A stretch of DNA of 64,000 bases from an uncultured delta proteobacterium (GCA_963755705.1 CAVWKW010000003.1:836067-900066), one strand, 5' to 3'. Positions 24,861 through 41,857 are shown, counted from the stretch's first letter. Made by a program: numbers and translations. The notes: generated from the letters alone by a model not told the origin.

Positions 24861-24909
24861 TGGAGGCGGCGATCGGATTCGAACCGATGCATGGAGGTTT
24901 TGCAGACCT
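24861..24909 (-). repeat. att site: 49-bp copy of the tRNA-Cys 3' end
   Basis: Identical to 41782-41830; spans the anticodon arm to CCA; identity breaks at both flanks. Confidence 0.97.
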
Positions 24910-24972
24910 GCGAGCGGAGCGAGCGGCCGCCAACAGTCGCACTAAGGTGCAGTCTTTACGGGCTTTTCACGC

Positions 24973-26166
24973 TCACCCTTTCTGCTCTCTACTGCTCGGA
25001 ACTGCAGCCTGCTCGATCATAGTTTGATCATAGTCGCGCGCACGGCTTATCGGTGTGACCTTGGAGCGCTTGGCCTGCTTGCCCATATACTTTGCGAGAC
25101 GATCCATCGCGTCGATCAAGTCGTCGTCAGCCGTTATGTTGTAGCGATCCAGCATGGAGCGAGTTTTGTGGCCGCTTATCTCCATCGCGACGGTGTCACT
25201 TACTCCTGCGCGCTTGAGATTGCGCACTCCCGTGCGGCGCAGGTCGTAGGGCAGGATGCCTTTGACTCCGCCGACCAGCCCGACCTCAGAACAAGCCTTG
25301 ATCCATGCCGTATTGTACGAAGCGATGGGCCTCGGCTCCGTGCCTTCGCCATTTCTGATCTTGAAGTGATAGAAAACGTTCGGACAGTCCGGTCTTCGCC
25401 GCGCTAGAGCGCGCTCGATGATTTCCCAAAGCTCTCCAACCAGCGGAAGGCGCCTAGGTTCGCGGTTCTTGCTGCTGCGACGCGGCAGAAGGAGCACTCG
25501 GTTCTCAATATCGATTGAGCTCCAAAGCATTCCGAGGACCTCCCTTGGCCGCCAAGGCACGAGCGACATAAATGTGATTGGATCCTTAAGGCGCTCGGGA
25601 AGGCGCGAACGGATAGCAAGAAAGGTCGCTTGATCTATAAAGCCCTCACGAATCCCGTCGCTGAGATCGAATTGCCGCGGAAAAGCGGGAACATTCGCCG
25701 ACGAGAGTTCACCGTTCTCCACCGCAAGGTTGAACATACGTTTGAGGATCGAGACTTCGTGATTGACGCTAGCCTTCGCCGCTCCTTCGGCCAGCCGGTC
25801 GCGTCGGTAGCGCACAATCTGGCTGGTCATGATCTCGATGGCTCGAAGATCTCCGAAAGCTGGCCGCAGGTGGAGAAGGCGAACACTGAGCGCCTTCATG
25901 TGCTGGTTGTTAACGCGATAGTCGCTCTCGATTGCGGACGCCATCTCGTCGAACGTCAACCGTTCTGCGCGCGTTCCAATATAGCTCGCGCCACCGACCC
26001 TGGCCTTGGCAAATTGCTCCAAGAGAACCTTCATCGCCTTTTTCTCGTCGGGCGTGTGCGCGGTTCGGCGTACGGGCTTACCGCGATGAGCAAACTGGAT
26101 GAACCAGTTCTCCGATCCAGGCTGTTTGTAGATACTGCCGACTCCCCTAATTGTCTTCCTTTCCAT
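24973..26166 (-). CDS. tyrosine recombinase/integrase
   Basis: N-terminal arm-binding-like GVGSIYK..W.IQF; catalytic R (WRPRE), K (SSKN), YDLRR, SGHKT, RY; SD CAGGAG before ATG 26166. Confidence 0.93.
   Translation of the reverse strand: MERKTIRGVGSIYKQPGSENWFIQFAHRGKPVRRTAHTPDEKKAMKVLLEQFAKARVGGASYIGTRAERLTFDEMASAIESDYRVNNQHMKALSVRLLHLRPAFGDLRAIEIMTSQIVRYRRDRLAEGAAKASVNHEVSILKRMFNLAVENGELSSANVPAFPRQFDLSDGIREGFIDQATFLAIRSRLPERLKDPITFMSLVPWRPREVLGMLWSSIDIENRVLLLPRRSSKNREPRRLPLVGELWEIIERALARRRPDCPNVFYHFKIRNGEGTEPRPIASYNTAWIKACSEVGLVGGVKGILPYDLRRTGVRNLKRAGVSDTVAMEISGHKTRSMLDRYNITADDDLIDAMDRLAKYMGKQAKRSKVTPISRARDYDQTMIEQAAVPSSREQKG
25013..25036 (+). repeat. tandem 11-bp repeat pair, putative Int arm-type site
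   Basis: tcgatcatagtttgatcatagtcg, 23/24 identical to 41691-41714. Confidence 0.7.
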
Positions 26167-26545
26167 TCGGCGCTCTCCTGATCGTATCTCGCAGTCTCTT
26201 TTCGTTGTATCTTTGAATGCCTTCAAGTTCGAAGAGGGTTCTGCCTCCAATGTGGACGACGAACGGCAATTCCCGGACACGGTGCCATATCCATGACTGC
26301 GAGACGCCCAATATTCTAGCAGCGGTCTTGGCGTCAACGTTCCGAACCCTCGTCGGATCGTTGTCGTGTGGCACGGCGGCGCTCGACACTGCTGCGCTCG
26401 GCGCTTCTACGCTTTCAACACGATCATCGAGGGCAGCCAGCGCGACGCGCGCCTGTAAACGCAGATCGCGCGCTCTTTGCGGCGCGAGTTCACGCACCAG
26501 TTCCGGGCGCCGAGCTACTGCATCGAGAGAAAGGTCAAACTCCAT
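26147..26545 (-). CDS. excisionase-like HTH protein
   Basis: VDAKTAARILGVSQSWIWHR..LPF...IGGRTLF (HTH_17/Xis pattern); overlaps the int start. Confidence 0.75.
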   Translation of the reverse strand: MEFDLSLDAVARRPELVRELAPQRARDLRLQARVALAALDDRVESVEAPSAAVSSAAVPHDNDPTRVRNVDAKTAARILGVSQSWIWHRVRELPFVVHIGGRTLFELEGIQRYNEKRLRDTIRRAPNGKEDN

Positions 26546-26614
26546 GGACGTGGCTCCAACTATCACAGAGAATCGCTCAAAAAAAGGAAGCTGAGATAGC
26601 GGTATGATTTAGTA

Positions 26615-26624
26615 GCTACATAGC
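26615..26624. promoter_or_regulatory. operator-like palindrome GCTA-CA-TAGC upstream of xis-int
   Basis: Extends to AGCTA-CA-TAGCT in an AT-rich intergenic region; same 10-mer at 32771 and 33840. Confidence 0.7.
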
Positions 26625-27022
26625 TAACACAAAAAGAATTTCAATGCAAGAGAAAACGAGCGGCACGGAAACAACGGTTCGCCGCGGAGTCCCTTCGCTG
26701 TCTCCCGCCCGCGTCCCGGAGGGAAGGGCGCTCCGATGCTTGTTTGAGTGCGCAGCATTGAAAGCGCCGCCCTCTCAACCGAGTCTGGAGGGCGGCGCAA
26801 GATTCCGGGATGCGCGTGGCGGAGCGTAGCAACCGTGCCGGACGCTGCGTTCGGCGCGGTTGCCCGCGGAGCGCGCGCCACCATTACAGCGGCGCGCAGC
26901 GGAGCGCGAGCGGCGCGATGCGCCGCGTGGCCTCGCGGCGAAGCTTGCGCAGCCCGAGCGTCCGCGCTCACAGCGCAACGCCGATGAAAAAATGTTTCGA
27001 CGGCAAGGTTGGGCAAGACCAG

Positions 27023-29755
27023 TCACCTTCTGATGCCGTGGGCAGGGGTGATGTTCCGGCGCGGCGGTTCTGGAACGATCTTGATGTCTCTTCGCTCGTT
27101 CAGGTTGAGGCGTTCCAGGGCAATCGACTTTTCGCGGTTGCGCCCCACAGCTGAGTCGAGTCTGGCACGGTCGTCGGTGTACAAGCTCATCGCATGCCGA
27201 GCCCGGCTGATCGAGACGTAAAACTGTTTGCGGTTTACGAGTTCAGCCGAGCGAGCGGTATCGATATTAGCGATCACGCGATCAACCGTGGACCCCTGGC
27301 TGGAATGCGAAGTCGAGGCGTAACCGTAGTCGATGTGCTTCAGACGATCGATTGCCGCGCTGATCTCGCGCCCGTTGTCGCTGCGCAGGCGAGCTTTGTG
27401 ATCGTCGATTGCGACGACTGTCGCAAACTCTCCATTGGCGACACCGAGCGCACGATCCGGCGCGCGGAATTGAATCCGGTCGCCCGCTCCGAGAACGCGA
27501 CGCTCCTGATGGAAGACCTCGACTCCGGATAGGCGCGAAGGATCGTAGCTGACAGCTTTTCCGCTTTCATACCGCACCACCATTTGGTTCCGTTCCGGGG
27601 TGATTGCTTCGATCCGGGCATAACTTCCGCGGTCGATGCCCAGCCGCGCACTTCCCCGCCGGAATCGGAGCACGTCGTCAACTTCGTAACTCTGCGCTCG
27701 TTTGCGCTGAGGGCGGGTCAGAACGCGGTTTACAAGCACGATCTGTTCTCGTCTATCGGAGCCGATGTGTCCGCGTTCCTTGAAGGCTGCGCGAATGGCG
27801 GCGTTCAACTGGCGGCGCTCGTCGTTGGCAGGGCTGACGACGAGCACCTTTTCACCTGCCTCGTGCGCGCCAAGATATTCGCGCGCAATCGCCGCGTGGC
27901 GCTCATTCGGATCGACAATCTCGCGGATGCGACCCTGCTGCTCGAGGAGTGCGATTGCGCCTCCAATCTCTCCGCGCGAAGCGAGCGTGACCGCTTCACG
28001 CAGTCCGGGATCGAGTTGGCGACGAATAGTCTCCAATCGCGCGATGGGCATGCCCGCTTGCTGCATCTGCTGGATGGGCCGGCCAGCCTCGATGGCGTGG
28101 TGCTGGCGCTGGTCGCCGACGAAGACGACCCGACCGACTTCGGCCTCTCGCGCCTTGTGCAGCAGCGCGTTCATCTGGCGAGTGCCGAGCAGGCTCGACT
28201 CATCGATGATCCACAACTCTTTGGCTGCGCGATCAGGAAGCGGGCCGGCGAGCAGGCTCGCCACGGTCCGGGATTCGATTCCGGCTTCGGAAAGCGCCTT
28301 TACGGCGCGCGTGGTCGGAGCGAAACCGCGTACCGCGTAGCCAGCGCTCTCAGCGAAGTCGTTGAGCGCTCCGACCGTGGTAGTCTTCGCCGCGCCCGCG
28401 CGCCCTTCGATCGAGGTAAGCCAATCGGTGGCAGTCAGCGTCAGCACCGCCGCCTGAGCCTGCTCGGCGGATAGCGAGCGCGCGGCTGCCCAACTGCGCG
28501 CGTCTGGTTCAGTGGCGATTGCGTCGGAATGCCCTCTGCTAGCGCGCATGAGTTCGAGATTCTCGCGCTCAAGCACCACCATCTCCGGGGTGGTGAAAAC
28601 GACTCCCGGAAACGAAGGGGAAACAGCAAGGGCGATTAGATCGCCACGTGATTCCCGAATACCGGTCTCGCACCGCACGCCTTCCAGGTCGGCGATTCCC
28701 ATGGCGTACTGAAGAGCGGTGCGCTCCAGAGCGCGCCGGTCAGTGACGGCTTCGCGTTCGGTGTTGTGAGCTACGCTGAATCTGACCGCTTCCTCGATCC
28801 CAGCCGGAGAGACTGTCCGCGAGGGTCCGCGTGCGAGCGCGTGTTCCGAAATCTCGGCGAGCGCGATTCGATTGTCATGGGCGCGCGCCTGCCACTCCGC
28901 GCGAAGCTGGTTTTCGTCACGCTTTTCTTTGGCACGCCGGCTCTGATGGGCGGCGATCTGGGCCGCTGCCGCTCCGGTTGAGTTTTGGCGGGAAAGAAGT
29001 GCTTCGATGTCCTGGCGTCTACGCGAAAACGCCATTACCTGTTCGCGCGTATATCCTTGTAGCTCCCAGCGTCCGTCGGACGCGGTAAGGCTGATTCGAT
29101 ATCCAAGCGCTTGGACTTCGCGGGCGAGTTCCGAGCGATAAACCGCAGTCGCAAGGCTCTGGCTGCGATAGATCTCTATCGGGTCCAGGCTCCGCCACAT
29201 GCCGTCTGGCCGCAGCGTCATGTTGGCGATTACGACGTGGGTGTGGAGGTGAGGGTCAGGGCCGTAGCCGTCGTGGGTCCCAGTCTCCGAAGGTCGCGCC
29301 GCGATGTGCTCGAAGCGGGCCGCAACGAAATTGCCGGTGGTAACCCACTCCTGTCCGCGATGTCGGCGCGCTTGGGCGAACTGTTCAAGTTCCGAAAGCG
29401 CTCGCTCGACCGCGCGCCGATGCGCCTCTACCAGCCGCGCATCTTCGCCAACCAGCGCCTGGATACTGACTGACTTCGGCGCATTAAACGTCGCGTCCCA
29501 ACCTGCGCGGCGGTCGTCACGGCCAGCGGCAGCACTGACCAGGACTTCGCCGCTACCGGGTCTGGTTCCGCGCAGCACGGCCCGAAAATCTTCCTCGCTG
29601 ACTGCGCCGCTCAGCCCGAGGATCTCGGCGGCTCTTCCATACCATTCGCCGGTGACGCGGTGCGATTCGGTATAGTAGTCGTCCTCGGAGTATTTCTCCT
29701 GATAGTAGGTCTCGGCTTGGCCTACACTAAGCGCGCCTTTCGACATTACCAGCAT
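27023..29755 (-). CDS. MOB-F (TrwC/TraI-like) relaxase-helicase
   Basis: N-terminal YY…DDYY, D.TF.APKSVS, PHLHTH (HUH), helicase GRAGAAKTT / IIDESS / GDQRQH / YASTSHSSQG.TVD. Confidence 0.93.
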   Translation of the reverse strand: MLVMSKGALSVGQAETYYQEKYSEDDYYTESHRVTGEWYGRAAEILGLSGAVSEEDFRAVLRGTRPGSGEVLVSAAAGRDDRRAGWDATFNAPKSVSIQALVGEDARLVEAHRRAVERALSELEQFAQARRHRGQEWVTTGNFVAARFEHIAARPSETGTHDGYGPDPHLHTHVVIANMTLRPDGMWRSLDPIEIYRSQSLATAVYRSELAREVQALGYRISLTASDGRWELQGYTREQVMAFSRRRQDIEALLSRQNSTGAAAAQIAAHQSRRAKEKRDENQLRAEWQARAHDNRIALAEISEHALARGPSRTVSPAGIEEAVRFSVAHNTEREAVTDRRALERTALQYAMGIADLEGVRCETGIRESRGDLIALAVSPSFPGVVFTTPEMVVLERENLELMRASRGHSDAIATEPDARSWAAARSLSAEQAQAAVLTLTATDWLTSIEGRAGAAKTTTVGALNDFAESAGYAVRGFAPTTRAVKALSEAGIESRTVASLLAGPLPDRAAKELWIIDESSLLGTRQMNALLHKAREAEVGRVVFVGDQRQHHAIEAGRPIQQMQQAGMPIARLETIRRQLDPGLREAVTLASRGEIGGAIALLEQQGRIREIVDPNERHAAIAREYLGAHEAGEKVLVVSPANDERRQLNAAIRAAFKERGHIGSDRREQIVLVNRVLTRPQRKRAQSYEVDDVLRFRRGSARLGIDRGSYARIEAITPERNQMVVRYESGKAVSYDPSRLSGVEVFHQERRVLGAGDRIQFRAPDRALGVANGEFATVVAIDDHKARLRSDNGREISAAIDRLKHIDYGYASTSHSSQGSTVDRVIANIDTARSAELVNRKQFYVSISRARHAMSLYTDDRARLDSAVGRNREKSIALERLNLNERRDIKIVPEPPRRNITPAHGIRR

Positions 29756-29758
29756 GGC

Positions 29759-31552
29759 TCAGATCCGTTTCCTGCGTGTGCTCGCCGCTGCGGGACCAAG
29801 CGCGATCACCTGCGATCGCCGCGCTGGCTTCACCAGCGCGGGCAGATTGACGCGCGGGATGAAACCTTCCTGCCGGACTTGGGGCGCGAGATAGTCGAAG
29901 CGCACGAACGAGCGGTGATGACCGGTGACGCAGAGGTAGCCCGACAGCGGCTGGAGCAGCTGCATCTCGGCGGGCATCACCGCCGGTTCCGTCGTTCGCT
30001 GTTCGCGGATACCGAACGAGTATTGCTCCCGATGACTCGCGTTGGCGCTCAGGTGGCCGCGCTCAACCTCGCGCTCGCCGATCTGCGCGCTGCACCACTG
30101 GGCCGTTTCAGGCTCTCCGGTTCTGAGAATCAGCTTGGTGGCGGGCGAGGCGACCAAGGTGGCGGCCTGGTTGACGCCGTAGATGGTCCGCAGTTGCGTA
30201 ATAGCCTGAAAGCCGAGCACGACCGCCAGCCCGCGCTTGCGGCCGCGGACGACCAGATCCTCGAGCTTCGCTTGCCGTCTCAACACCGGAAGCTCGTCTG
30301 CAACGATCCAGACCTGTTCCTGTCTGCGCGGCCCAAGTTCCCGGCTCAGCAGCCGGTGGATGATGCAATCCAGCCAAACGCTCTGCAACTGCAGTGCTGC
30401 GTCTTTGGATTCTTCGGACGAGGTCAGGAACAGCCAGCCCTGTCGCTTCGCCGACCATTCCAATGCGCTCCAACTTCGCGGCGCGTTCTCGGGCAGGAAG
30501 TGAAAGGCCTTGGTCGCGTTGGCGGCGGTGGCGACGATGCCGGCGCCCTGCTCGTGCGCTCCGGGATCGATCAGCGCTTCGGCTGGCGTCCCGATAAGCG
30601 CCCGTCTGAGTTCGGCGCGCGGCAGCGTGAGCAGGCGCGGGATCGACGACGCTTCCCTGGGCTCGGCTATTCGGAAGATGCTGGTCAGCAGCGTCCGGCT
30701 GCTCTGACGGAAAAAGAAGCTCGCCCCGCCCTCGTGATACGCGTCCGGTGGGTCAGGGAGGAGCGAGGCGGCCAGCGCCTCGCAGTCGGCGTCGTGACTT
30801 TCATCGCGAAGCTCGCGCCACGGTGACCAGCGCGGGCAACGGGCATCGAGCGGATTGAGGATGAAGTCGCCGCGCCCGGGTTGATAGAACTCGGAGACGA
30901 ACTCGCACTCCGGGTCAACCACGACCGCGGTTTCACCGCGCTCCTCTATCTGCCGAAGCAGCGAACGTATGGCGACCGACTTGCCGGACCCAGTCGAGCC
31001 GGTGACGAGAAAGTGTTGGCACTCAAGCGCGCGCGGTATGCGAACGCCGGCGAGCCGAATGCCAGCGCGGCCGACCAGCTTGCGGGCGAGTTTGCGTGCT
31101 GGAACCAGAGTGATGCCGCGAATATGTCTGGCTTCGCAAGGAGCGCTGCGCACAAAGAGAATTGTCACGGCGGCGGCTTCGATCAGACCGGTCAGCGCCG
31201 CTCCCCATGGTGCGTAGTGCCAGTACCACGCAGCGAATGAGCCGCCGAGATAATACTTGTAATTGAGAAAGGCGTACATGCTGGCGATGGTGTAGCGCCC
31301 GCCGCGATAGAGGAGCGATGCGAAGGTCAGCGGAATCTCCTGGGTCAGGAACCACGCCAGAAACCAGCGGATGAAGTAGCGATGTGCGGCCGGACCGCCG
31401 TAATGCCCGCTCCAGTGCCAGACCAGGCAGATGGTCATCTCGATCCAGAGCGCCGCGGTCAGGAGGACGTAACGCAGCGCCTCTCTGAGTCTGAACTCCA
31501 GCGAAGCATAAAGGGCGTGTTCGTGGATTGCCTGACGAATGATGGGCGTCAT
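29759..31552 (-). CDS. type IV coupling protein (TrwB/TraD-like)
   Basis: N-terminal TM segments, Walker A GSTGSGKS, VVVDP..EF, Walker B IVADELP, LGFQ...QL..IYG. Confidence 0.9.
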   Translation of the reverse strand: MTPIIRQAIHEHALYASLEFRLREALRYVLLTAALWIEMTICLVWHWSGHYGGPAAHRYFIRWFLAWFLTQEIPLTFASLLYRGGRYTIASMYAFLNYKYYLGGSFAAWYWHYAPWGAALTGLIEAAAVTILFVRSAPCEARHIRGITLVPARKLARKLVGRAGIRLAGVRIPRALECQHFLVTGSTGSGKSVAIRSLLRQIEERGETAVVVDPECEFVSEFYQPGRGDFILNPLDARCPRWSPWRELRDESHDADCEALAASLLPDPPDAYHEGGASFFFRQSSRTLLTSIFRIAEPREASSIPRLLTLPRAELRRALIGTPAEALIDPGAHEQGAGIVATAANATKAFHFLPENAPRSWSALEWSAKRQGWLFLTSSEESKDAALQLQSVWLDCIIHRLLSRELGPRRQEQVWIVADELPVLRRQAKLEDLVVRGRKRGLAVVLGFQAITQLRTIYGVNQAATLVASPATKLILRTGEPETAQWCSAQIGEREVERGHLSANASHREQYSFGIREQRTTEPAVMPAEMQLLQPLSGYLCVTGHHRSFVRFDYLAPQVRQEGFIPRVNLPALVKPARRSQVIALGPAAASTRRKRI

Positions 31553-31893
31553 GACGGTATCTCCTTGCTCTTCAGCACCTGTGCGACGTGCTCCTTGGCG
31601 GTCTGTTCGGCGGAGTCGATGATCTCGTCGACCACCTCCGCTCCCAGCGTGTGGTCCAGCGAATGCAAGATGACGGAGCGGGTCTTGGCGACCTCGAAGA
31701 TGAGCTGCGCGTACTCATCCAAGGATTGGATTTTTGTCTGAGGCTCCATCGCTGACGGAGCGGCGCCGAGGTAGCGCGCAGCGAGAATTTTGCGAATCAG
31801 ATCGCTTTCGGTCACGCTTCGGCGGCGCGCTTCGGCCGCAAGCTGATCGGCGATTTCTTCCGGGACTCGGGTTGAGATCGATCGGGAGTTCAT
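31549..31893 (-). CDS. ribbon-helix-helix relaxosome accessory protein (TrwA-like position)
   Basis: SISTRVPEEIADQLAAEARRRSVTESDLIRKIL; first gene of an RHH-T4CP-relaxase operon. Confidence 0.75.
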   Translation of the reverse strand: MNSRSISTRVPEEIADQLAAEARRRSVTESDLIRKILAARYLGAAPSAMEPQTKIQSLDEYAQLIFEVAKTRSVILHSLDHTLGAEVVDEIIDSAEQTAKEHVAQVLKSKEIPS

Positions 31894-32069
31894 GTGTGGT
31901 TCTCCAAAGTCTGCTGTAGACGGGTGTTTACACTGATTTGGCGAGGACTTAGACCGCTTCGCACCTCTTCCTGTAGACAGCGTCTACCCAATGTTTTCGG
32001 GTACTTGCACGAATCGCGTTCATCCAGGCGATGAGTGACGTGTCAATTCCCAAACACGTGCGAAGCACG
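31894..32069. other. candidate oriT
   Basis: Intergenic region upstream of RHH-T4CP-relaxase; CTGTAGAC repeated at 31914 and 31971; hairpin GTAGAC-agc-GTCTAC at 31973-31987. Confidence 0.45.
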
Positions 32070-32369
32070 TCAGCCGACCTTCCGCTGATGGCAATCACGA
32101 TTCGCCCTTGGCGCTGCCGTTGGATGAAGACTGGAGCGGAGACACGGCGTGACTGGCTGTTCAGGAGAGCGCGCCCACAAATGGAACTCACGATCAGCTT
32201 GGCCGAAGGCACTGAGAATCTCCGGAATCAGCGCCTTCAAGTCCACAGCGTTGCCGTGAACGTGCTCGTAGTAGCGCGCGTAACTTTCGAGGTCGGCATT
32301 CAGATCGCCGGCTAGCTTCACGCGTACCTGCAGGAAACGAAGCGGCTTTGCGATGCGTGCGAGTTTCAT
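32070..32369 (-). CDS. DUF2274-like protein
   Basis: MKL…V.L..DL.ADL..YA……V….LIP.IL..F…DREF pattern; SD GGAGGT. Confidence 0.65.
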   Translation of the reverse strand: MKLARIAKPLRFLQVRVKLAGDLNADLESYARYYEHVHGNAVDLKALIPEILSAFGQADREFHLWARSPEQPVTPCLRSSLHPTAAPRANRDCHQRKVG

Positions 32370-32406
32370 ATCGGACCTCCACCAATGCATACTTGGAAAC
32401 GACTGC

Positions 32407-32745
32407 TCAGAAGGGCGCGAGGTAAGTCAGCAAATGGACGGCGATCAGGGCGGCCCAAGCCGCTACTCCGCCAGCCAGCAGGCGCCCTGCTCGTGGGTAG
32501 CTGCCGATCGCGTACAGGATCACTGACAAGGCGAAGTTCAGCATTATTACGGCGTGAGCGACGGGACCTACCAGCATGTCCTGAATCGCGCCCAGCGTCT
32601 GATCCCACGGCATGGCATCAGCGTATTGCGCGGCCCGCGACGGCTGGGCTCGTAGCGCGAACAGGGCGGCGGCGCAGGCGGCGATGAGCCATCTGAGGTT
32701 CAATTTCGGCGCATGGTTTACCGCGGTTGGAGTCATGGGCAACAT
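32407..32745 (-). CDS. TrbC/VirB2-family pilin
   Basis: Signal peptide, then MPWDQTLGAIQDMLVGPVAHAV (TrbC motif) and two hydrophobic helices. Confidence 0.75.
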   Translation of the reverse strand: MLPMTPTAVNHAPKLNLRWLIAACAAALFALRAQPSRAAQYADAMPWDQTLGAIQDMLVGPVAHAVIMLNFALSVILYAIGSYPRAGRLLAGGVAAWAALIAVHLLTYLAPF

Positions 32746-32770
32746 CCGTTCTTGGCTAGGTGACTACTTC

Positions 32771-32819: not shown

Positions 32820-32847
32820 ATGAAACGGCCGGGGGCTTGTTGGCGGG

Positions 32848-33833: not shown

Positions 33834-33839
33834 AATTGA

Positions 33840-33849: not shown

Positions 33850-33969
33850 ATATTTGCAAAAGCGCCGTAAGCCTCTGCTTGGCGCCGCCCGGAGCATGAG
33901 TCAACCGCGCGGCGGCGAGTACCGGACTTTTGCTCAGCAGGCCTCAAGTAATACGGCGGGCTGAAGTAT

Positions 33970-35274
33970 CTATCTTCCGAATAGTTCGTTATCGATGACG
34001 CCGGTGTTGAGCTTTTGTGTGCCCGGATCAAGACGCATCGTGAGGAGCAAGTCCGTCCGATCGCCCGGGACGAAAAACTCGTTGGCGAGTTCCATCTCGT
34101 TTCCACCGCCATCGGGCATAGTTCGTACGCTCCAAAGGGGCACTGCGGAATCTTCGAATCCGGGATGCTCTAGATCATAGCCGAGCAGGACGAACGTCTC
34201 GCTGTCAATGTAAATGCGCGCGCGGAGCGGCCGAACCGAGATGAGGCCTAATAAAGAGGATGCCTGTAATTGGACGGGGCTGGCCTCCATGACGTAGGCA
34301 GAGCGCAACTCGAAATTCTCTTGGCCCAGTTCGATCCGATGTCCCGAGCGGATTATCCCCGCCGGCTTCGTTTCGGCATGCAGGCAGGCAAGAACGGATT
34401 GAACTCCGAGTAAGCGAAACTTGTACGCCATCGGTGGCGGAGAAACGTATTCCCACCAGAACTGAGTACATCCGTAGGTACACTGATCTGAGGCGTATAC
34501 CAAGCCGAAAAATGAATTGGACCCGCCTCCGAAGATCCACCAGAGTGCATCACCCCATGAAATATATCCGATCGAACTGCCTGAAACGTCCCACTCGCCG
34601 GGATCCTCAAGGTCGCTCCATGCGATCGAATAGTCCCTGGAGCGGCCGCACTTCATGCCGCGAACTCTCCACTCGAAGGGAATCTTCACGGAGACTCTTG
34701 GAATCGGCTCGACTTTGCTGCGATGCGCGTAGCGTATGAAGATGAGCGTATTGCACGGTCCCTCCGACCGGAAGTCGTCATCATCGTCGCGAGGTATCAG
34801 AGCATTCGACTCGGCGTTGACCGCATAGGCTTGTGAGCGGTTTGAACTAAACAGCATTACGTCATCGGGCACAAACGGACCCCAATGCCAGTTGTACGCC
34901 ACCTTCATCGCTGCGTTCGGATCGTTGACATCAACCAGCGGAAAAGGAAAGCCTGCGACGTAATTATGCACCTCATTCCCGTTGACTAGACGCACTTGAC
35001 CCGAGTACTGCTCGGTAAGTTTTCGAAAGCGAGGCGGCCAGTCAATACGCTCGGTCGGCACGACTGTGGCCCTGAGTCCGTGAGCAATCGCAAATTTCAG
35101 CGCGGCGGGAAGATATTTCGCATACAGGTCAAGGTTGTTGCGATCGACAATTGTGCCGACGCGAGGCGGTTCGGGCGCGTTCGATTGGTAAGGCGTCCCG
35201 GCGCATGCGTTGCGCGCCACGCAGGCCAGCAGAAGCGCGATGGCAACGCCGATGCTCGCACGATTGTGCCCCAT
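33970..35274 (-). CDS. DUF1329-family exported protein (possible lipoprotein)
   Basis: GTIVD..N...Y..YLP…TEQYSGQV…NYVAGFPFP.…DP.AA.K.AYNW matches my recall of DUF1329; signal peptide contains LLLAC. Confidence 0.7.
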   Translation of the reverse strand: MGHNRASIGVAIALLLACVARNACAGTPYQSNAPEPPRVGTIVDRNNLDLYAKYLPAALKFAIAHGLRATVVPTERIDWPPRFRKLTEQYSGQVRLVNGNEVHNYVAGFPFPLVDVNDPNAAMKVAYNWHWGPFVPDDVMLFSSNRSQAYAVNAESNALIPRDDDDDFRSEGPCNTLIFIRYAHRSKVEPIPRVSVKIPFEWRVRGMKCGRSRDYSIAWSDLEDPGEWDVSGSSIGYISWGDALWWIFGGGSNSFFGLVYASDQCTYGCTQFWWEYVSPPPMAYKFRLLGVQSVLACLHAETKPAGIIRSGHRIELGQENFELRSAYVMEASPVQLQASSLLGLISVRPLRARIYIDSETFVLLGYDLEHPGFEDSAVPLWSVRTMPDGGGNEMELANEFFVPGDRTDLLLTMRLDPGTQKLNTGVIDNELFGR

Positions 35275-35411
35275 TCGCTATTCTCCGTTCACGCCGGTCT
35301 TGCACGAAGGCGTGGCCTCAAAGCCCGGCAATACAGGGCGCGCCGATGTCTCGCGATCTAGATACCATATACCATGAGAGCGGCTCCCAAGAGGATCAAC
35401 CGGATGGAACT

Positions 35412-38400
35412 TCAAGGAGACGGTGCTACAGGCACGCAAGGCCACGACCCACCGCCGAACCATGAACAGAAGGAGCCCGATGAAAGGGTCAAGGTATCTT
35501 CGGGCGACCCGCACGTATTAGTGCATGGATTTCCGGATCCAAGGGCCGTTGGCATCGAACCCACCACCAATCTCTGCGTTGTTTGAGGTGTCGGTGTCGT
35601 GATGTCAGCCGTATCCAGATTCACCGGGAGCCCGCCATACTGGGCGAGACCTCCAAGACCATAAAGCGATACATTCCGCTGCGCCATCAGCTCTGAACTA
35701 ACATAGAGAGAAAATGTTAAGCCGCCGCCAATGGTAAAGCTTCCTCCTCCCTTGCCGTTCCCCTTTCCCTTCATCCCGAACTGCCCTGACGGTGGGGCAG
35801 GGCCACCCCCACCACCACCGCCGCCGCCACAGCCGGCGCTGAATAGTCCTAGCGGATCGGAGAAGTTGGTGGGGCTGTCGAAGGAGTAGGCGAAAAGATT
35901 GGCTTGGCCGCCGACGAAGCCGATCGGATCGGGTGAGAGGAAGCGCCCGAGGAGCGGATTGTAGTAGCGCGCGCGAAGATCGTAGAGCCCGCTGGGATCG
36001 GATTCGCGCCCGAGATATTGAAATGGATTCGCCACCGTCGGTCCGCCCATTGCTGGCGACGCTCCATACGGACCGTATTGGTATTGAACGGCGAACGCGC
36101 CGCTGGAATTCACCAGCCCCGCGACCGATCCGGGCGCCTCGGCGAGCATCGCGTAGATCTGGCCCGATTCGGAGAGTGAAAAATACCCGTCGAGGTTAAG
36201 CCCCGGTATCATATCCACCGTGCCCCCTGAAGTCTCTTGCTGCGCGACGTTGAGACCATCATAGACATACTGGGTGGTCGCACCGTTGTTCAGCAGCCCG
36301 ACACGGCGTCCCTCGGCATCATAGGTGAAGCTGCTTTGCACGCCACTTGTCGTCGAGGCGAGTTGATTGCGTTCGTTCCATGCATAGGTTGCGGATAGCG
36401 ACGGATCGAACGTCAGGTTGCCATTCCCGTCGGTCGTCGCTGGAGTGGTGTTCCAAGTGGCGAGCTGATTGCCGGCATCGTAGGTCGCCGTCATAGCGTA
36501 GGGCATATTGACAGTAGCCAGCGTCCCACCGAAGCTGTTTACTCGTCCATCCTGATCGTAACCATAGGTCAGGTTGCCCAGGTTGCCGCCGCCGGTACTG
36601 CTGTAGTTGATCGAGGTCGGATGCGAATCCGCATCGTAGCCGTAGCTGATCGTGACACTATTGGGCTGAGTGATGGTCTCCGGCCTTCCGTCAGCATCGT
36701 ACACGAAGCCAACCGCCTGCGTTCCGCGAGTCTCCGAAATGAGGTTGTCGTCATTATCATAGCTGTAGGCCGTCTGTGCCTGATTGCTCGCAGTCATCGT
36801 TTGGCGCCGCTGCGCGAGATCATAGGTATAGCTGACACCTGCATTGAGGGTCGCGGACACATACGAGGTAGTCAACGGATCATCGAGCCCGTCGTAGGTC
36901 GCCGTCAGCGTGTCGCCCGCGCTGCCGGTGCCGCTGTCGTGAGCGCTGGTCAAGCGATTTCCACCGTCGTAAACGTAAGCGGTCTGGGTCTGATTATATC
37001 CCGCTGTTTTGCTGGTATTATATTGCGCGGTGATCAAGCGGCTAAGCCCGTCGTAGGTGAACTGATCGGTCAACGAGCGACCATCGGTTATACTGGTAAC
37101 GTTTCCGAGTGGGTCCATATCAGCCGTTTCACACCGATTGGCGCCATCGCAGCGCTGGACCGTATTATACTGGTAGTTGCGGCTGTAGATTAATTGATGG
37201 CCGTTCGCGTCAGTGACGGTGACCAGATTTCCCAGCGGGTCGTAAGCGAGTTGTGTAACCGCGCCGGTCGCATCAGTCATTTTGGTCACACGATTCATCG
37301 CGTCGTACACAAACGACGAGGTCTTCTGCAACGCGTCTTCGACCGAGGTCAGGCGACCCACCGTGTCATAGCCGAGAGTGAATACCGCGCTCAGCGGATC
37401 GGTGACCATCTGCAAGTCTCGCGACGAATCGTAGGCAAAGCTGGTCGTGTTCTGGAGCGCATCGGTCAAGGTTAGCATCTGCCCCGCCGAATTATAGGTT
37501 GCCCTCACTGTATTCCCCAGCGGATCGGTTCGGGTCGTCGCGTTGCCGTAGCCATCGATAGAAATGCTGGTTTTGTGGCCGAGCGGATCGGTCACGCTGG
37601 TTAGCTGGCTGAAGCTTGGATCGTACGTGTAAGAAGTGGTCGCTGCCTGCGGTGTCCCGGACAGTTGAGTAATGGAGAGGATGTTTCCGTAGGAACCATA
37701 GACGTAAGTAGTGGTCCGTCCGAGCTGATCGGTAACGGATGTAACCTCACTGGTATTTGCATCAACAACATATTGTGTAACCTGCTGTTCAGGTTCTCCT
37801 TCCGCCTGAGTGTCCTCGGTGATGTAGTCGTTGCCGTTGAAATTCAATTCGCGAACATAATTTCGGGGATCCGTGATTTTAGCCCAAGCAGCAGGGCCGT
37901 TTCCCTGCATCCCAGATGGGTACTGGTAGCTGTAGTTTCCAAGCACTCCAGTCGTTGATGTTAGGCGATGAACGCTGCTGTAGCTGATAGCGCCAGTCGC
38001 CGCGACCTGATATTCCACGATTCCGGTCATATCCGCCTTGGTTCCCGTCCAATCAAAGGTGGTCCACGCGCCATCCGCATTATAGAAAGAAGTCATCTGG
38101 GCGTCTGAATTATAAGCATAAATTACGGTTCGCCCCGCGCTATCGACAGCCTGTGTAATTTGGCCCGGATTGCTCGATTCGGTGTAGTAGAGGTTGATGT
38201 AACGGCCATCGGTATCCGTGATCTCGGTTGGGTTGCCAGACGAATTTCTGACGACATTGACCTGGTTTCCATAGCGATCAGTAATCGAGGCCAGTGCTGC
38301 ACCGTTTGGAAAATAGAAAGTCTCGCCATCCTTGCGGCGCACATTCCACCCCGGTTCCGAAGAATTATACGATACCACGGCAGCGAAGAAGCTCCCGGGA

Positions 38401-38894
38401 TTGTTCGTGCATTGAAACACTGCATCGGTATAGTCGGTACAGTTGTTTTTGCTACAGGATGAGGTCCGGGCACAATTAAACTGCGCCCCGTCGGGCATCA
38501 CGATCTGCATGTTCGTGTAGTTGCCGTTGTTCACGTAGCTCTGTGAGAACAACTGGAGATCATAGTTCGAGGTCATCCCGACCCCGAAATCGAACGTGAT
38601 CGTATTACCGGCGCCGTCCACCTCCTGGGAACGATAGGTGCGCGTGAGCACAAGCGGGATTGGCCCCGGCAGAGTGAGATCGGTCGTCGAGAATTCATAG
38701 TAACCGCGCGCCAGTGCGGTTAGCGGCTCCTCCGGATTAGGTCCGTTGGCGGGAATCATGGCTTCGCCGCCGAAGATGTCGGTCAGGGGTTGGATTGTAG
38801 TCAGTTGCGGCTGAGCCATTCTTGGCCAGATCGCGAAACCGGCCACCAGCAGTAGGATAACCGAGAACCATCGAAAAGGGTGAACGAGCTTCAT
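35412..38894 (-). CDS. Sec-exported Rhs/YD-repeat protein with DUF6531-like N-terminus and Rhs core
   Basis: Signal peptide; TDL.LPGPIPL..TRTY.S; many YD repeats; core YQYLGRE.D.SGLY…ARYY.P.LGRFLSPDPIG…N.FAY…P…SDPLGL. Confidence 0.92.
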   Translation of the reverse strand: MKLVHPFRWFSVILLLVAGFAIWPRMAQPQLTTIQPLTDIFGGEAMIPANGPNPEEPLTALARGYYEFSTTDLTLPGPIPLVLTRTYRSQEVDGAGNTITFDFGVGMTSNYDLQLFSQSYVNNGNYTNMQIVMPDGAQFNCARTSSCSKNNCTDYTDAVFQCTNNPGSFFAAVVSYNSSEPGWNVRRKDGETFYFPNGAALASITDRYGNQVNVVRNSSGNPTEITDTDGRYINLYYTESSNPGQITQAVDSAGRTVIYAYNSDAQMTSFYNADGAWTTFDWTGTKADMTGIVEYQVAATGAISYSSVHRLTSTTGVLGNYSYQYPSGMQGNGPAAWAKITDPRNYVRELNFNGNDYITEDTQAEGEPEQQVTQYVVDANTSEVTSVTDQLGRTTTYVYGSYGNILSITQLSGTPQAATTSYTYDPSFSQLTSVTDPLGHKTSISIDGYGNATTRTDPLGNTVRATYNSAGQMLTLTDALQNTTSFAYDSSRDLQMVTDPLSAVFTLGYDTVGRLTSVEDALQKTSSFVYDAMNRVTKMTDATGAVTQLAYDPLGNLVTVTDANGHQLIYSRNYQYNTVQRCDGANRCETADMDPLGNVTSITDGRSLTDQFTYDGLSRLITAQYNTSKTAGYNQTQTAYVYDGGNRLTSAHDSGTGSAGDTLTATYDGLDDPLTTSYVSATLNAGVSYTYDLAQRRQTMTASNQAQTAYSYDNDDNLISETRGTQAVGFVYDADGRPETITQPNSVTISYGYDADSHPTSINYSSTGGGNLGNLTYGYDQDGRVNSFGGTLATVNMPYAMTATYDAGNQLATWNTTPATTDGNGNLTFDPSLSATYAWNERNQLASTTSGVQSSFTYDAEGRRVGLLNNGATTQYVYDGLNVAQQETSGGTVDMIPGLNLDGYFSLSESGQIYAMLAEAPGSVAGLVNSSGAFAVQYQYGPYGASPAMGGPTVANPFQYLGRESDPSGLYDLRARYYNPLLGRFLSPDPIGFVGGQANLFAYSFDSPTNFSDPLGLFSAGCGGGGGGGGGPAPPSGQFGMKGKGNGKGGGSFTIGGGLTFSLYVSSELMAQRNVSLYGLGGLAQYGGLPVNLDTADITTPTPQTTQRLVVGSMPTALGSGNPCTNTCGSPEDTLTLSSGSFCSWFGGGSWPCVPVAPSP

Positions 38895-39421
38895 CGGCCG
38901 CCCTCCTCTCGATCCGCCAGCGTGTTGACTGTGAGTATCCGGCCGCCGCGAATATCGCGATTCTCAATCTTCGCGGTTCGCTTTGTATTTGTGACCGTCG
39001 GAGAGGTTGAGACTAGCGCTGTGTCGGCTAATTCGATCGGAAAGCCGAACACCCCGCTTGCCCTTCCGTATAGCTCCGCCGCTGCGTAGCTGCTTGGCGC
39101 GGTGGAGAGGGAAGGTTGGGCATTGCCCTGCGGCGGATTGGTTATTGTAATAGATAGCAGATTTCCTACCGGATCGTACGAATAGGTGGCTGTTGTTCCC
39201 GATGGGTTCGTGACCGAAGTCAGACGCCCCGCAGGGTCGTACGCATAGGTGATATTCTGCGCAACGGCGAGCGACCCACTGGCGAGCACGATCATGGTCG
39301 TTAGCGCCAGCAGGAGAGCGAATCTGGCGAAAGCATCATGTGCGATCGCCAGACGCTCTTGAAACCGTTGTTTTCTTTGCACTGCGCGACGGTTACAAAG
39401 CTGGCTGTTCGATGAGGCCAT
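38891..39421 (-). CDS. small exported protein with two YD repeats
   Basis: SD GGAGGGAG before ATG 39421; hydrophobic signal …SLAVA, then ITYAYDPAGRLTSVT and YSYDPVGNLLSIT; ATGA overlap with rhs. Confidence 0.7.
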   Translation of the reverse strand: MASSNSQLCNRRAVQRKQRFQERLAIAHDAFARFALLLALTTMIVLASGSLAVAQNITYAYDPAGRLTSVTNPSGTTATYSYDPVGNLLSITITNPPQGNAQPSLSTAPSSYAAAELYGRASGVFGFPIELADTALVSTSPTVTNTKRTAKIENRDIRGGRILTVNTLADREEGGR

Positions 39422-39605
39422 GGCTCCCTCCCATTTACAGACCATCGTCGCTGCGAGCTGCCGCTTCGGCGCGCATGTTCGGAAATGCACTTTGCGGCGC
39501 ACTGTTGCTCGCTATTGCACTTCTGCTCTCGTACCGCTAGAGCATCTGAAAGTCAAGCGCGCCCACATACCGTGAAATAGAGGGTCGGCATAACGGCTAA
39601 GAGTC

Positions 39606-41291
39606 ATGACTAGTTCACCTCTTGGTACAGGTCAGGTTACGGACCGATTGGAGAATCCCCGCTATTCGATGGACGAGTACCGAGAACGCTCGGTGCCTGC
39701 CATTGCCCCGACCGGCGGCTACCTGACAATCGCGCAGGCGTCCTGCTTATCGATCATCAGTGGAGCGGCACTGGCAACAGCGTTTCCGAAGGTATCACTT
39801 GGACTTCTAGCGTGGGGTGCTTTCGTCCCACTGTATTTCGCGATCGACGGCGCGCGGCTGAGGCGAGTCTTCTGGCTAACATGGCTGCAACAGCTCACGT
39901 TCTTGATTTGTACACTTTACTGGCTCTGGATCCCCCTTCACGTCGATGGTCACAAGCCAATCGTGATTGCAGCCGGGACGATCTTCTTCGTGACGGTTGT
40001 GGAAGCTTTGTTCGGCGCGGCATCTGTTCTCAGCGCCGAATTCATAAGTCGGAGGCTCAGTATATCGCGCTTGATCAGCTATTCTGTTGCGTGGACCGTT
40101 TTCGAATGGGTTCGAAGCTTCTTTCCTGTTGGCTTTCCGTGGAATCCGCTGGGCGACGCGCTGTTCAGCGAAATTACGGTGATTCAGATTGCTGAAGTAG
40201 TCGGAGTTTTCGGATTATCCGCGCTGATTGTTTTTGTAAACGTCGCGCTATGGGAGATAGCGGCTGCAGGGCTCTCCGGAAAGCAGAAGACTCGAGAAAC
40301 ATTTTCTCTGGCGATAGTCATAGCTATGGTGATCGGATTCGGGATACTGCGAACGCGAGAACTCGAACAGATACCGCCGGCGGGCCATTTGACGGTTGCG
40401 ATGGTTCAGGGAAACATCCCTCAGAGCGCGAAATGGGACCCCGCGCAACTTCCACCCACATTCAAGATTTACTCAGACGCAACAGAAGCAGCAGCGCATT
40501 CGCGACCCGACCTAATCATCTGGCCGGAGACGGCTGCCGACTTTTTCTTTCAGCCATTGAATGCTTATCCGTGGGCGTTCAGAACCGATGCTCAATACTG
40601 GGCACGGTTGGCCAGCTTAGCTGCGCGGCTCGGAGTACCGATCCTGTTCGGCGCGCCCGCGCTCGATATTGGCCGCGACCTGAAGACACGTAATCGCGCT
40701 TACCTGCTCGGTGGCGACGGACGCGTCTGCGACTACTACGATAAGATCGAGCTAGTGCCGGTTGGAGAATACGTTCCCGTTCTGCTGAGACATTTTGTAA
40801 AACGAATGGTCGAGGCGCCTTCCGACTTCTTCCCTGGCAACCGGCAGACCGTATTCAATGTGGGAACCGCTCGAATCGGAGTTTTGATCTGCTACGAATC
40901 ACTCTTCCCGTACTTGAGCCAACACGTGGTGCGCAGGGGCGCCAATGTCCTTGTGAATATTACGAATGATGCGTGGTATGGCCGCAGCTCGGCACCGTAC
41001 CAATTGCTCGCTATGACCGTGATGCGCGCGGTCGAGAACCGCACCCCTGTGATCAGGGTTGGAAACACGGGAATCAGTGCAATTATTACGGCGGTCGGCC
41101 GCATTCAGGGCGCTACTCAACTATTCACGCGCACGACTGAGATAGAGACGGTCGAGTGGAAAAATGTCCGCGCGTTCTATTCTCAATCGGGCGATGTCTT
41201 CGCTTGGGTGTGCTCAGCGCTGCTCGCGCTCGGTTTGCTCGCAACGGCAGCGATGTCGATCCGGGACCGCACGGGCGCCTCGCCTAGGTGA
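39606..41291 (+). CDS. lnt: apolipoprotein N-acyltransferase
   Basis: Multi-TM N-terminus with GFPW; nitrilase triad WPE, YDKIELVPVGEY, ICYES; NITNDAWYG, RAVENR. Confidence 0.93.
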   Translation: MTSSPLGTGQVTDRLENPRYSMDEYRERSVPAIAPTGGYLTIAQASCLSIISGAALATAFPKVSLGLLAWGAFVPLYFAIDGARLRRVFWLTWLQQLTFLICTLYWLWIPLHVDGHKPIVIAAGTIFFVTVVEALFGAASVLSAEFISRRLSISRLISYSVAWTVFEWVRSFFPVGFPWNPLGDALFSEITVIQIAEVVGVFGLSALIVFVNVALWEIAAAGLSGKQKTRETFSLAIVIAMVIGFGILRTRELEQIPPAGHLTVAMVQGNIPQSAKWDPAQLPPTFKIYSDATEAAAHSRPDLIIWPETAADFFFQPLNAYPWAFRTDAQYWARLASLAARLGVPILFGAPALDIGRDLKTRNRAYLLGGDGRVCDYYDKIELVPVGEYVPVLLRHFVKRMVEAPSDFFPGNRQTVFNVGTARIGVLICYESLFPYLSQHVVRRGANVLVNITNDAWYGRSSAPYQLLAMTVMRAVENRTPVIRVGNTGISAIITAVGRIQGATQLFTRTTEIETVEWKNVRAFYSQSGDVFAWVCSALLALGLLATAAMSIRDRTGASPR

Positions 41292-41690
41292 GCGCGGGAG
41301 CTTCAATGGAGACGATCTATTATAATTGTTTCCAAGCTGGTCCGAGAGCTCTGCAACGTTCTCAGTGAAACGCACAGGATGACTCGGATCAACGTAAGGT
41401 TTGTCGCGAACACGATCATCCGCGCTCTCGGCCTGCTTGAATCGATCTTCCAGACGGGGTTCCAACTGTTCTGCGAACGAAACACGAATTGATTGGGCTC
41501 CTGTGGGTCTGAGGCGCCCAATCGACGTGGAATACTTCATAGTGGCGCGAGGTGAATAAAAGTAGCACGCGGTCGATGTCAAGATGCGGGAGTCGCGCCA
41601 ATCTGGGCCTTTAACTGTTCCCAAGAATCATCGCGTCTTAGCTTACCGGGAAGCCTCGGTCTCGGTTTTTCACCAGCACGGCGGTGTGGT

Positions 41691-41714
41691 TCGATCATAG
41701 TTCGATCATAGTCG
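41691..41714 (+). repeat. tandem 11-bp repeat pair, putative Int arm-type site
   Basis: tcgatcatagttcgatcatagtcg, 67 bp inside the tRNA-side att. Confidence 0.7.
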
Positions 41715-41781
41715 AACCGGATCGTGCGACCCGACCGAACGTGTGCCAGCAGAAAACTTGCTTTATTTACGGGGTATTGTT

Positions 41782-41857
41782 TGGAGGCGGCGATCGGATT
41801 CGAACCGATGCATGGAGGTTTTGCAGACCTCTCCCTTAACCACTTGGGTACGCCGCC
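41782..41857 (-). tRNA. tRNA-Cys (GCA)
   Basis: 76-nt cloverleaf: GGCGGCG/CGCCGCC acceptor stem, GAGGT-CTGCAAA-ACCTC anticodon arm, TTCGAAT T-loop, encoded CCA. Confidence 0.97.

Follow-up and report, generated by a model that had tools for sequence, protein, structure and literature searches.

How does an island that encodes a relaxase and a coupling protein of its own, and no conjugative channel, come to lie in a chromosomal tRNA gene, and how might it leave again? This question is raised by positions 24861 to 41857 of a 64-kb stretch of DNA (GCA_963755705.1, CAVWKW010000003.1:836067-900066; the window, whose first letter is position 1) assigned to an uncultured delta proteobacterium. The host of the island is an uncultured soil bacterium of the Candidatus Binataceae. 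In our judgement the island is very probably an integrative and mobilizable element (IME) of about 16.9 kb that its own tyrosine integrase placed in the 3' part of the tRNA-Cys gene, derived from, and probably mobilised by, a sister family of Trb-type integrative and conjugative elements (ICEs).

A 16.9-kb insertion in the tRNA-Cys gene

The single tRNA that ARAGORN detected in the window is an intact tRNA-Cys(GCA) at 41782-41857 on the minus strand. A repeat search revealed a 49-nt direct repeat, 100% identical and in the same orientation, at 24861-24909 and 41782-41830, with a spacing of 16,921 bp. The copy at 41782-41830, the tRNA-proximal att core, consists of the last 49 nt of the tRNA gene, which in the tRNA sense are positions 28-76 and reach from base two of the anticodon stem (AGGT-CTGCAAA-ACCT) as far as the 3'-terminal CCA. 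The copy at 24861-24909 (minus strand) is the tRNA-distal att core, a displaced copy of the same positions. When a 29-nt sub-pattern of the core was searched for with up to 3 mismatches, only these two sites were found in the window and none in 100 shuffles. A preliminary description of this DNA had proposed a perfect 49-bp att duplication that begins in the anticodon arm, and both the repeat search and ARAGORN bear this out. No third, degenerate copy of the core (at least 28 of 49 matches) was present between 20000 and 46000, and the idea of tandem islands was dropped for this reason.

The decisive comparison was provided by L083, a JGI metagenome contig found via a 93% identical orthologue of the histidine kinase encoded next to the tRNA. 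Positions 1-3886 of this contig align with 45691-41782 of the window at 94% nucleotide identity and positions 3838-4846 with 24909-23901 at 93.7%, and the two alignments share exactly the 49-bp core as their overlap. The tRNA-Cys sequence of L083 is identical to that of the window and is followed directly by the left flank of the window, so that CCTCCA at the end of the tRNA is joined to TCAATCTTTTCGCC in L083 and to TCAGTCTTTTCGGCC in the window. Since the site is unoccupied in this close relative, the DNA between the two cores of the window is an insertion. These data show that 16,921 bp were inserted site-specifically in tRNA-Cys and that the tRNA gene was rebuilt in the process. Thus, the comparison of the tRNA-Cys locus between related genomes, which had been suggested earlier as a check, uncovered an empty site. 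Two more distant contigs, L084 and L085 (kinase 68% identical at the protein level, locus 73% at the DNA level), contain the identical core in their tRNA-Cys.

The crossover probably takes place in or near the anticodon loop, as the block of identity reaches from the anticodon arm to the 3' end of the tRNA, which is consistent with an exchange in the loop. The exchange point itself leaves no trace because both cores are identical. Williams in 2002 reportedly distinguished sublocation classes of tRNA-integrating elements, crossover in the anticodon loop being one of them.

Transfer genes and a candidate origin of transfer

The largest transfer gene (27023-29755, minus strand) encodes a 910-aa relaxase of the MobF (TrwC/TraI) type with a C-terminal superfamily 1B helicase. 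It scores 283.7 bits with Pfam TrwC (cut-off 25) and 259.3 bits with NCBIfam NF041492 MobF (cut-off 100), its C-terminal domains are AAA_30 and UvrD_C_2, it is 35% identical to the IncW TrwC over the full length (E 1e-136), and its matches in the PDB are TraI and TrwC. The hallmark of MOBF relaxases is a set of paired N-terminal tyrosines together with a histidine triad. The corresponding residues, Y17/Y18, Y27/Y28 and H169-x-H171-x-H173 (PHLHTH), are invariant in the relaxase alignment.

Upstream of the relaxase gene lies that of a 597-aa type IV coupling protein (T4CP) of the TrwB/TraD kind (29759-31552, minus strand; Pfam TrwB_AAD_bind 297.5 bits), which is 35% identical to the IncW TrwB (E 7e-50), matches the TrwB structure 1e9r in the PDB (E 6e-48), and has a Walker A motif (GSTGSGKS) and a hydrophobic N-terminus in its translation. 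The preceding gene (31549-31893, minus strand) stands at the trwA position and encodes a small ribbon-helix-helix (RHH)-like protein with weak RHH_1 and CopG matches, a putative relaxosome accessory factor. The position of this gene is kept in relatives, and no similarity of its product to TrwA was detectable (E 0.6). As the preliminary description had read from the DNA, the RHH, T4CP and relaxase genes follow the order trwA-trwB-trwC, and the int and xis genes lie at the distal end; both readings were confirmed by Pfam and NCBIfam, and all of these genes are on the minus strand. The relaxase gene and the Xis-like gene are separated by a 456-bp spacer.

A candidate origin of transfer (oriT) occupies 31894-32075 (minus strand), between the genes of a DUF2274 protein and the RHH protein; its non-coding part measures 176 bp. 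It consists of a first inverted repeat at 32056-32070 (ACGTGC-TTC-GCACGT), about 10 variable bases, the invariant 15-mer TGACACGTCACTCAT at 32031-32045, a second inverted repeat at 32020-32034 (TCATC..GATGA) and, before the RHH gene, a set of GTCTAC repeats. The block starts directly after the DUF2274 stop codon and is the most conserved non-coding stretch of the relatives. The 15-mer occurs once in the window; in all 14 Binataceae loci that cover the region it is found exactly once and on the relaxase strand, and it is also present in 9 of the 13 loci of the sister ICE family (described below) that are longer than 6 kb. Each inverted repeat contains one compensatory pair (T:A to C:G in 4 of the 14 loci, C:G to T:A in 3 of 14), and 94% of the inverted-repeat cells are paired, compared to 18-53% when the partner is slid. 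The short repeats further downstream vary with the type of RHH protein, being GTCTAC in the window and L001 and GTACAC in L012-like loci, as would be expected for sites bound by the accessory protein. In addition, the region bears a short, low-scoring resemblance to the IncW nick region (GGTGCG..GTCTA), which is a lead rather than a test. The location upstream of the accessory gene is the same as in R388.

Pfam on the main open reading frames (ORFs) and tblastn with seven MPF proteins revealed neither VirB4 nor an operon for mating pair formation (MPF), be it within the element or in other parts of the window; outside the element, the remainder of the window carries housekeeping genes. The earlier statement that VirB4 and an MPF operon are missing therefore holds, but it was incomplete, as genes for a TrbC/VirB2-type pilin and a DUF2274 protein are present. 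These two genes had been overlooked along with an XRE-ImmA gene pair, the oriT-like block and the arm repeats of the integrase. By its predicted content the element is an IME: it combines an integration module with a relaxase and a candidate oriT, and it lacks the VirB4 that would make it an ICE.

With a pilin-like gene and its own T4CP retained, and several cargo proteins that are secreted or membrane-bound, one might ask whether the island transfers itself without a canonical channel, either with nothing more than the relaxase, the T4CP and the pilin or through a pore that is specified by the cargo and has escaped recognition. We give this only a minute chance, because no VirB4-family ATPase, VirB6, VirB8, VirB9 or VirB10 is encoded and the minimal relatives of the element (L001, at most 9.5 kb) carry no cargo at all. 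Moreover, we know of no conjugation system of double-membrane bacteria that works without VirB4.

The pilin-like and DUF2274 genes

The pilin-like protein of the TrbC/VirB2 family (32407-32745, minus strand, 112 aa) has a signal peptide, two hydrophobic helices and an LPWDQTL..GPVAH motif. Its Pfam TrbC (PF04956) score of 28.6 bits against a gathering score of 27.9 is marginal when taken alone. However, 10 of 11 orthologues match PF04956, the best with an E of 1e-12, so the predicted pilin identity is marginal for the window protein and solid for the family. Aligned with the TrbC of an ICE (L090, see below), it gave an hhalign probability of 95.5% (E 1.4e-8) at 25% identity.

The next gene encodes the DUF2274 protein (32070-32390, minus strand, probable start 32369; Pfam DUF2274 43.8 bits); in the sister ICEs described below, this gene closes the Trb operon. 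A suspected RHH-like fold was set aside, as the single-sequence AlphaFold model was all-helical with a pLDDT of 61 and was judged unusable. A DUF2274 profile search of the PDB returned nothing significant, and no mention of DUF2274 was found in the literature.

A sister family of Trb-type ICEs

The closest plasmid relaxase, 39% identical, is that of pACPOL1 of Acidisarcina, where VirB3, B4, B9, B10, B8 and B11 are encoded directly upstream of a NikA-like protein, a T4CP and a MobF relaxase. When the MPF proteins of pACPOL1 were used in tblastn, they matched the Binataceae locus L009. This locus contains, in this order, VirB4 (the C-terminal part, at the edge of the locus), two unclassified ORFs, TrbL/VirB6, VirB8, VirB9 (CagX) and TrbI/VirB10; there follow a TraF-type S26 pilin-processing peptidase, DUF2274, the 15-nt motif, an accessory ORF, a T4CP, a MobF relaxase and an integrase gene that overlaps tRNA-Thr. 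The relaxase of L009 is 60% identical to that of the window.

A scan of JGI metagenomes with the TrbL of L009 yielded 37 loci. In the long ones the gene order is XRE, ImmA, a TrbB-like ATPase, orf114, TrbC, TrbD, TrbE/VirB4 (886 aa), a TrbJ-like protein, orf168, TrbL, TrbF, TrbG, TrbI, TraF and DUF2274, followed by the oriT motif, the accessory gene, the T4CP and the relaxase. L009 and L090 encode VirB4 together with the MPF set and are thus full ICEs. The sister ICEs (L009, L090, L097, L099, L100, L102, L105 and L115) share with the island XRE-ImmA, TrbC, DUF2274, the 15-mer, the T4CP and MobF in the same order. They differ from it by the additional TrbB, TrbD, TrbE/VirB4, TrbJ, TrbL, TrbF, TrbG, TrbI and TraF peptidase, approximately 9-10 kb in all. 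In other words, the backbone of the window equals the sister ICE minus TrbB/orf114 and minus everything from TrbD to TraF. Identity between the ICEs and the window is about 60% for the relaxases and about 48% for the T4CPs.

Among the Binataceae loci that cover this region, TrbC stands directly before DUF2274 in ten, the two are fused in one (L002), and three are of the ICE type (L009, L014 and L015). The occurrence of the reduced form at many insertion sites indicates that the loss of the channel is old and that the reduced form kept moving afterwards. In the ICE-type relatives, a TraF-like S26 signal peptidase gene precedes DUF2274 (6582-7328 in L009, 25-210 in L014); the peptidase scores 85 bits with NCBIfam TraF_Ti (cut-off 100) and 55.8 bits with Pfam Peptidase_S26. 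In RP4, TraF matures the TrbC pilin.

Relatives of the backbone and its mosaic structure

The relaxase has thousands of relatives. Those with a name that are 85-89% and 60-68% identical belong to Candidatus Binataceae or Binatus, and those at 41-43% to Acidobacteriota. In the Binataceae loci the string TrbC, DUF2274, RHH, T4CP and relaxase is conserved, and the XRE-ImmA pair is located either ahead of this string or past the relaxase. The backbone is present in at least 14 Binataceae loci, beside other tRNA or tmRNA genes and with other integrases, at relaxase identities of 60-88%. No literature was found on conjugative elements of the Binatota, the nearest co-mention concerning marine plasmid gene clusters. 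The expectation that this is an undescribed IME family of the lineage thus gains support from both the spread of the backbone and the literature.

One relative is L001, a 4.58-Mb contig whose relaxase is 88% identical. The whole element measures at most 9.5 kb there, with an enoyl-CoA hydratase gene on one side and tRNA-Glu on the other, and has no genes but XRE, ImmA, TrbC, DUF2274, RHH, T4CP and relaxase genes followed by those of a small Arm-DNA-binding protein and a 274-aa integrase. An element of this size between housekeeping genes has no room for MPF genes. In almost all relatives, a tRNA or tmRNA gene lies a few kb past the relaxase, convergent with an integrase gene; the sites are Glu, Asn (two), Arg (two), Thr, Ala (three), Val (two) and tmRNA. 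The window and L001 share 7.1 kb (33851-26741 of the window) at 84.7% nucleotide identity, and the int/xis module as well as the DNA from 33852 to the tRNA are different. This implies a mosaic structure, in which cargo and an exchangeable integration module surround a conserved backbone.

Among the Acidobacteriota relaxases of 41-43% identity (L046, L054, L056, L057, L065, L073, L074 and L081), some follow VirB8, B10 and B11 genes and are thus conjugative, and in L046 the trio of NikA-like protein, T4CP and relaxase stands alone, with no MPF gene within 10 kb. The split into conjugative and mobilizable forms may therefore also exist in Acidobacteriota.

The integration module

The tyrosine integrase gene (24973-26166, minus strand) encodes 397 aa from an ATG at 26166. 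The ORF as listed begins at a TTG at 26337, and the ATG at 26166 fits the 397-aa length of the nearest homologue. The protein scores 48 bits with Pfam Phage_integrase and 30 bits with Int_N, and its catalytic residues (R..R..H..Y) align with those of the XerC-like structure 4a8e. P0241, the nearest homologue, has the same length of 397 aa and is 93% identical, and the next best is only 45% identical; judged by these matches, the integrase is rare. On the Logan contig L086, the gene of the 93% identical copy follows those of a T4CP and a relaxase. From the relaxase to its end this contig is 78% identical to the window at the DNA level, and it stops 30 nt into the same tRNA-Cys core, where an assembly with k=31 must break.

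Overlapping the start of the integrase gene is that of a small Xis-like helix-turn-helix (HTH) protein, a candidate recombination directionality factor (RDF; 26147-26566, minus strand). L086 has a 130-aa gene at the same position, before int. In runs X5-X8, from soil and mine drainage, contigs compared with positions 23500-43000 of the window covered the int/xis region to a depth of about 40, with 11 differences in 1564 nt (99% identity), and left the RHS-Lnt cargo uncovered. These runs therefore contain a sibling element in which other cargo accompanies the same integration module, and the int-att module thus travels with different cargo or backbone partners.

Each end of the island also has a candidate arm-type integrase site. 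A 24-nt direct repeat (D2) at 25013-25036 and 41691-41714, 96% identical with one mismatch, is in both copies a tandem of GATCATAGT at 11-bp spacing. This 9-mer occurs five times in the window, against 0.24 times expected, and four of the five lie in the D2 copies. One copy of D2, located in the 3' end of int, is about 104 bp inward of the distal core, and the other is about 68 bp inward of the tRNA-proximal core. In the excised circle, the core would have one pair on either side, an arrangement typical of arm-type integrase sites. The distal pair is kept in L086; as it is part of the int coding sequence there, this is not independent evidence.

Mobile element, remnant or assembly artefact?

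Several observations weigh against an IME that is mobilised by the sister ICEs. In four of the metagenomes that contain the element (X1, X2, X3 and X23), no L090-type ICE was detected at 85% or more nucleotide identity, these data being shallow and not evidence of absence. The Xis-like and RHH proteins reach only E=0.003 with Pfam HTH_17 and about 0.009 with RHH_1/CopG, both under the curated cut-offs. A search of L001, L002 and the remaining loci for att repeats of at least 12 bp, from the neighbouring tRNA to the opposite end, gave none. Finally, the window probably comes from a metagenome assembly, where a free circle could in principle be joined in by way of the 49 bp in common, and the k=31 Logan contigs break at the 49-bp core, which is longer than k, and so attL, attR, attP and attB are indistinguishable in them.

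The last two points could be counted in favour of an assembly artefact, i.e. a free circular replicon or an excised element threaded via the 49 bp in common with tRNA-Cys, and the 2-3 times deeper chromosomal flanks than cargo in X1-X3 could be added to them. This depth gap is explained equally well by strains without the element. It is weak evidence in any case, because related strains also map to the flanks, and it fits, weakly, a mixed population. No replication initiator or partition gene was identified by Pfam on the main ORFs, and an integrase next to a core identical to the tRNA is the signature of an integrating element. An artefact, which would leave the attP x attB biology unchanged, thus seems very unlikely to us. 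Contig joints at the att site were also considered and were dismissed, having only 21-nt sides in the conserved T-arm.

The missing repeats have a different bearing. L001 and L002 abut tRNA-Glu and tRNA-Asn, respectively, and their integrase gene overlaps the 3' end of the tRNA; the missing repeats imply that their att cores are very short or that one end has decayed. In L002, a single 135-aa ORF (7163-7570) fuses the N-terminal half of TrbC to DUF2274, which is probably a decayed copy. Both features, together with a backbone that equals an ICE minus most of its MPF genes and with the failure to observe a circle in the k=31 contigs, would suit a decayed, non-transferable remnant of a Trb-type ICE that was inserted once and is now inherited vertically. 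We consider this improbable, since in the window none of the transfer and recombination ORFs is truncated and their catalytic motifs are present, both 49-bp cores are still identical, and a 94%-identical relative is without the element. Moreover, near-identical int modules occur with other cargo, and the reduced architecture has been kept over relaxase identities of 60-88% and at many tRNA sites, which argues for repeated movement after the deletion. An IME in tRNA-Cys that descends from the sister ICEs accommodates these observations best, and its mobilisation in trans by such ICEs is made plausible by the oriT motif that they have in common.

Predicted life cycle and regulation

In the life cycle that we envisage for this IME, an XRE repressor encoded at the head of a string of genes in a single direction would keep the element silent until the adjacent ImmA-type protease lifts the repression upon some signal. 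The genes under XRE/ImmA would form one long transcription unit ending with xis and int. The integrase and the Xis-like protein would then recombine the 49-bp cores, probably with help from the flanking GATCATAGT arm repeats, and excision would restore an intact tRNA-Cys and release a circle. The MobF relaxase together with the RHH protein would nick the oriT-like block between the DUF2274 and RHH genes, and the T4CP of the element would hand the relaxase-DNA complex to the Trb-type (MPF_T) channel of another element, the likeliest helpers being the sister ICEs of Binataceae.

The retained, diverged pilin may enter the pilus of the helper. A bolder version is that the retained TrbC, 25% identical to the ICE pilin, and DUF2274 rebuild the pilus or channel of the helper in favour of the island's own transfer, its recipient range or its escape from exclusion. 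We rate this as rather doubtful; if true, it would be a pilin-level counterpart of the SGI1 TraN/TraH/TraG proteins, spread through an uncultured phylum.

The putative regulators are an XRE-family protein of about 107 aa, encoded by the first gene of the conserved backbone (33510-33833, minus strand; weak HTH_3 and DicA-like matches), and an ImmA/IrrE-type M78 metallopeptidase with the motif HEYGH (32848-33513, minus strand; Pfam Peptidase_M78 25 bits against 22), whose gene is paired with XRE in the relatives and the ICEs. The repressor is 90-98% identical in L001, L002, L008 and L016. In the window (33510-33833), L001 (5932-6243), L002 (6072-6383) and L016 (5792-6103) the protein identity is 95-98%, whereas the relaxases of the same elements are only 66-88% and the adjacent ImmA proteins 74-82% identical. 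The conservation of the repressor is thus unusually strong, and it may reflect shared immunity or cross-regulation.

ICEBs1 carries the regulatory pair ImmR/ImmA. The island resembles it in having an XRE-type repressor gene beside that of an M78/ImmA-type HEXXH peptidase at the head of the element. Unlike in ICEBs1, the likeness ends at the level of domain families, with nothing in common at the sequence level beyond them, and a similar mode of regulation is suggested by analogy.

Comparison with known elements

In the order and orientation of the genes for the accessory protein, the T4CP and the MobF relaxase, the island matches the trwA-trwB-trwC region of the IncW R388 type (compared with pHH2-227, JN581942). 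It differs from IncW in being integrated, in having no adjacent MPF operon, in the RHH protein, which lacks similarity to TrwA, and in the oriT, which is unrelated except for GGTGCG..GTCTA.

IMEs of the MOBF class at tRNA genes have been catalogued in Mesorhizobium (PMC8627217). The IMEMlR88B-like elements are similar to the island in that they are chromosomal and tRNA-adjacent, encode an integrase and a MOBF relaxase, lack MPF genes and have an RDF gene downstream of the relaxase gene (PMC8627217). However, the Mesorhizobium IMEs use a Ti-like traACD locus, and a virD4-like T4CP is found only in those without traACD (PMC8627217). The island, which is from a different phylum, has instead a TrwC-type relaxase-helicase with its own T4CP, a pilin gene and DUF2274.

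IMEs with a relaxase, a coupling protein or a small number of MPF subunits of their own form a recognised category (PMC5704250). SGI1 encodes TraN, TraH and TraG, which replace the subunits of the helper, and GISul2 and an IncP island encode TrbJ, TrbK and TrbL (PMC5704250). The island likewise keeps a subset of the mating-apparatus genes of a helper type. It differs from SGI1, GISul2 and the IncP island in that the subunit it retains is the predicted pilin TrbC/VirB2 (or, in the ICE relatives, the TraF peptidase) and that it also encodes its own relaxase and T4CP. According to a review from 2017, no canonical IME with a MobF relaxase had been characterised, and an own VirD4 was found in two putative streptococcal IMEs only (PMC5704250); the Mesorhizobium catalogue is of later date.

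The island is therefore a new family within the known IME class. The kind of element is well known, and the present case is of value for cataloguing and for evolution, less so as a new concept. Its distinguishing traits are the TrwC-type relaxase combined with an own T4CP, the retained pilin, the ImmR/ImmA-like switch, the swappable integrases and an identifiable parent ICE. The Binatota have no cultured members. These loci provide the phylum with a matched ICE/IME pair, which has a common oriT core, exchangeable integrases at at least eight different tRNA/tmRNA genes and an exact empty site. The pair would be a clean natural example of a mobilizable island arising from a conjugative one through the loss of the mating channel. 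The att cores, arm repeats, oriT block, relaxase, T4CP and pilin sequences can all be tested in a heterologous host.

Cargo and neighbouring genes

The cargo lies between the backbone and the tRNA. It begins, outside the shared backbone, with the gene of a DUF1329 protein that has a signal peptide (33970-35274, minus strand; Pfam DUF1329 38.5 bits). This is followed by an RHS-repeat protein of 1160 aa (35412-38894, minus strand; Pfam RHS_repeat 156 bits in 8 stretches, DUF6531), which has a DPLGL core end and then an unclassified C-terminal tip of about 170 aa that gave no Pfam match. The cargo has no obvious immunity gene. A small RHS-repeat protein of 203 aa (38891-39502, minus strand; Pfam RHS_repeat 47 bits) is encoded next, its gene overlapping the start of the large RHS gene by 4 bp.

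The sole plus-strand gene of the element encodes a homologue of the apolipoprotein N-acyltransferase Lnt (39606-41291; Pfam LNT_N 106.7 bits, CN_hydrolase 123.2 bits). Lnt is unusual on a mobile island; another homologue (54%) is found upstream of the related element in L013. Together with the RHS protein and DUF1329, it shows that envelope and competition genes travel on islands of this type in soil. An uncertain ORF of 136 aa (41214-41624, minus strand) has no Pfam match and a 37% identical homologue upstream of trbC in L006.

Beyond the tRNA, a 1128-aa ORF (42117-45503, plus strand) is antisense to the gene of the hybrid histidine kinase (41973-44471, minus strand); it is almost certainly spurious, as can arise in high-GC DNA. 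On the other side, just beyond the distal att core, the GC content at 22000-24860 is only 0.52-0.60, compared to about 0.63. This stretch encodes a DUF3800 protein (22230-23078), a HigA-like HTH ORF (23520-23825) and a 237-aa ORF for which no Pfam family was found. Only 23901-24860 of it is common to L083, where a RelA/SpoT gene follows beyond that point, and metagenome contigs diverge at about 24770-24812. The region downstream of tRNA-Cys thus looks like a variable hotspot in its own right.

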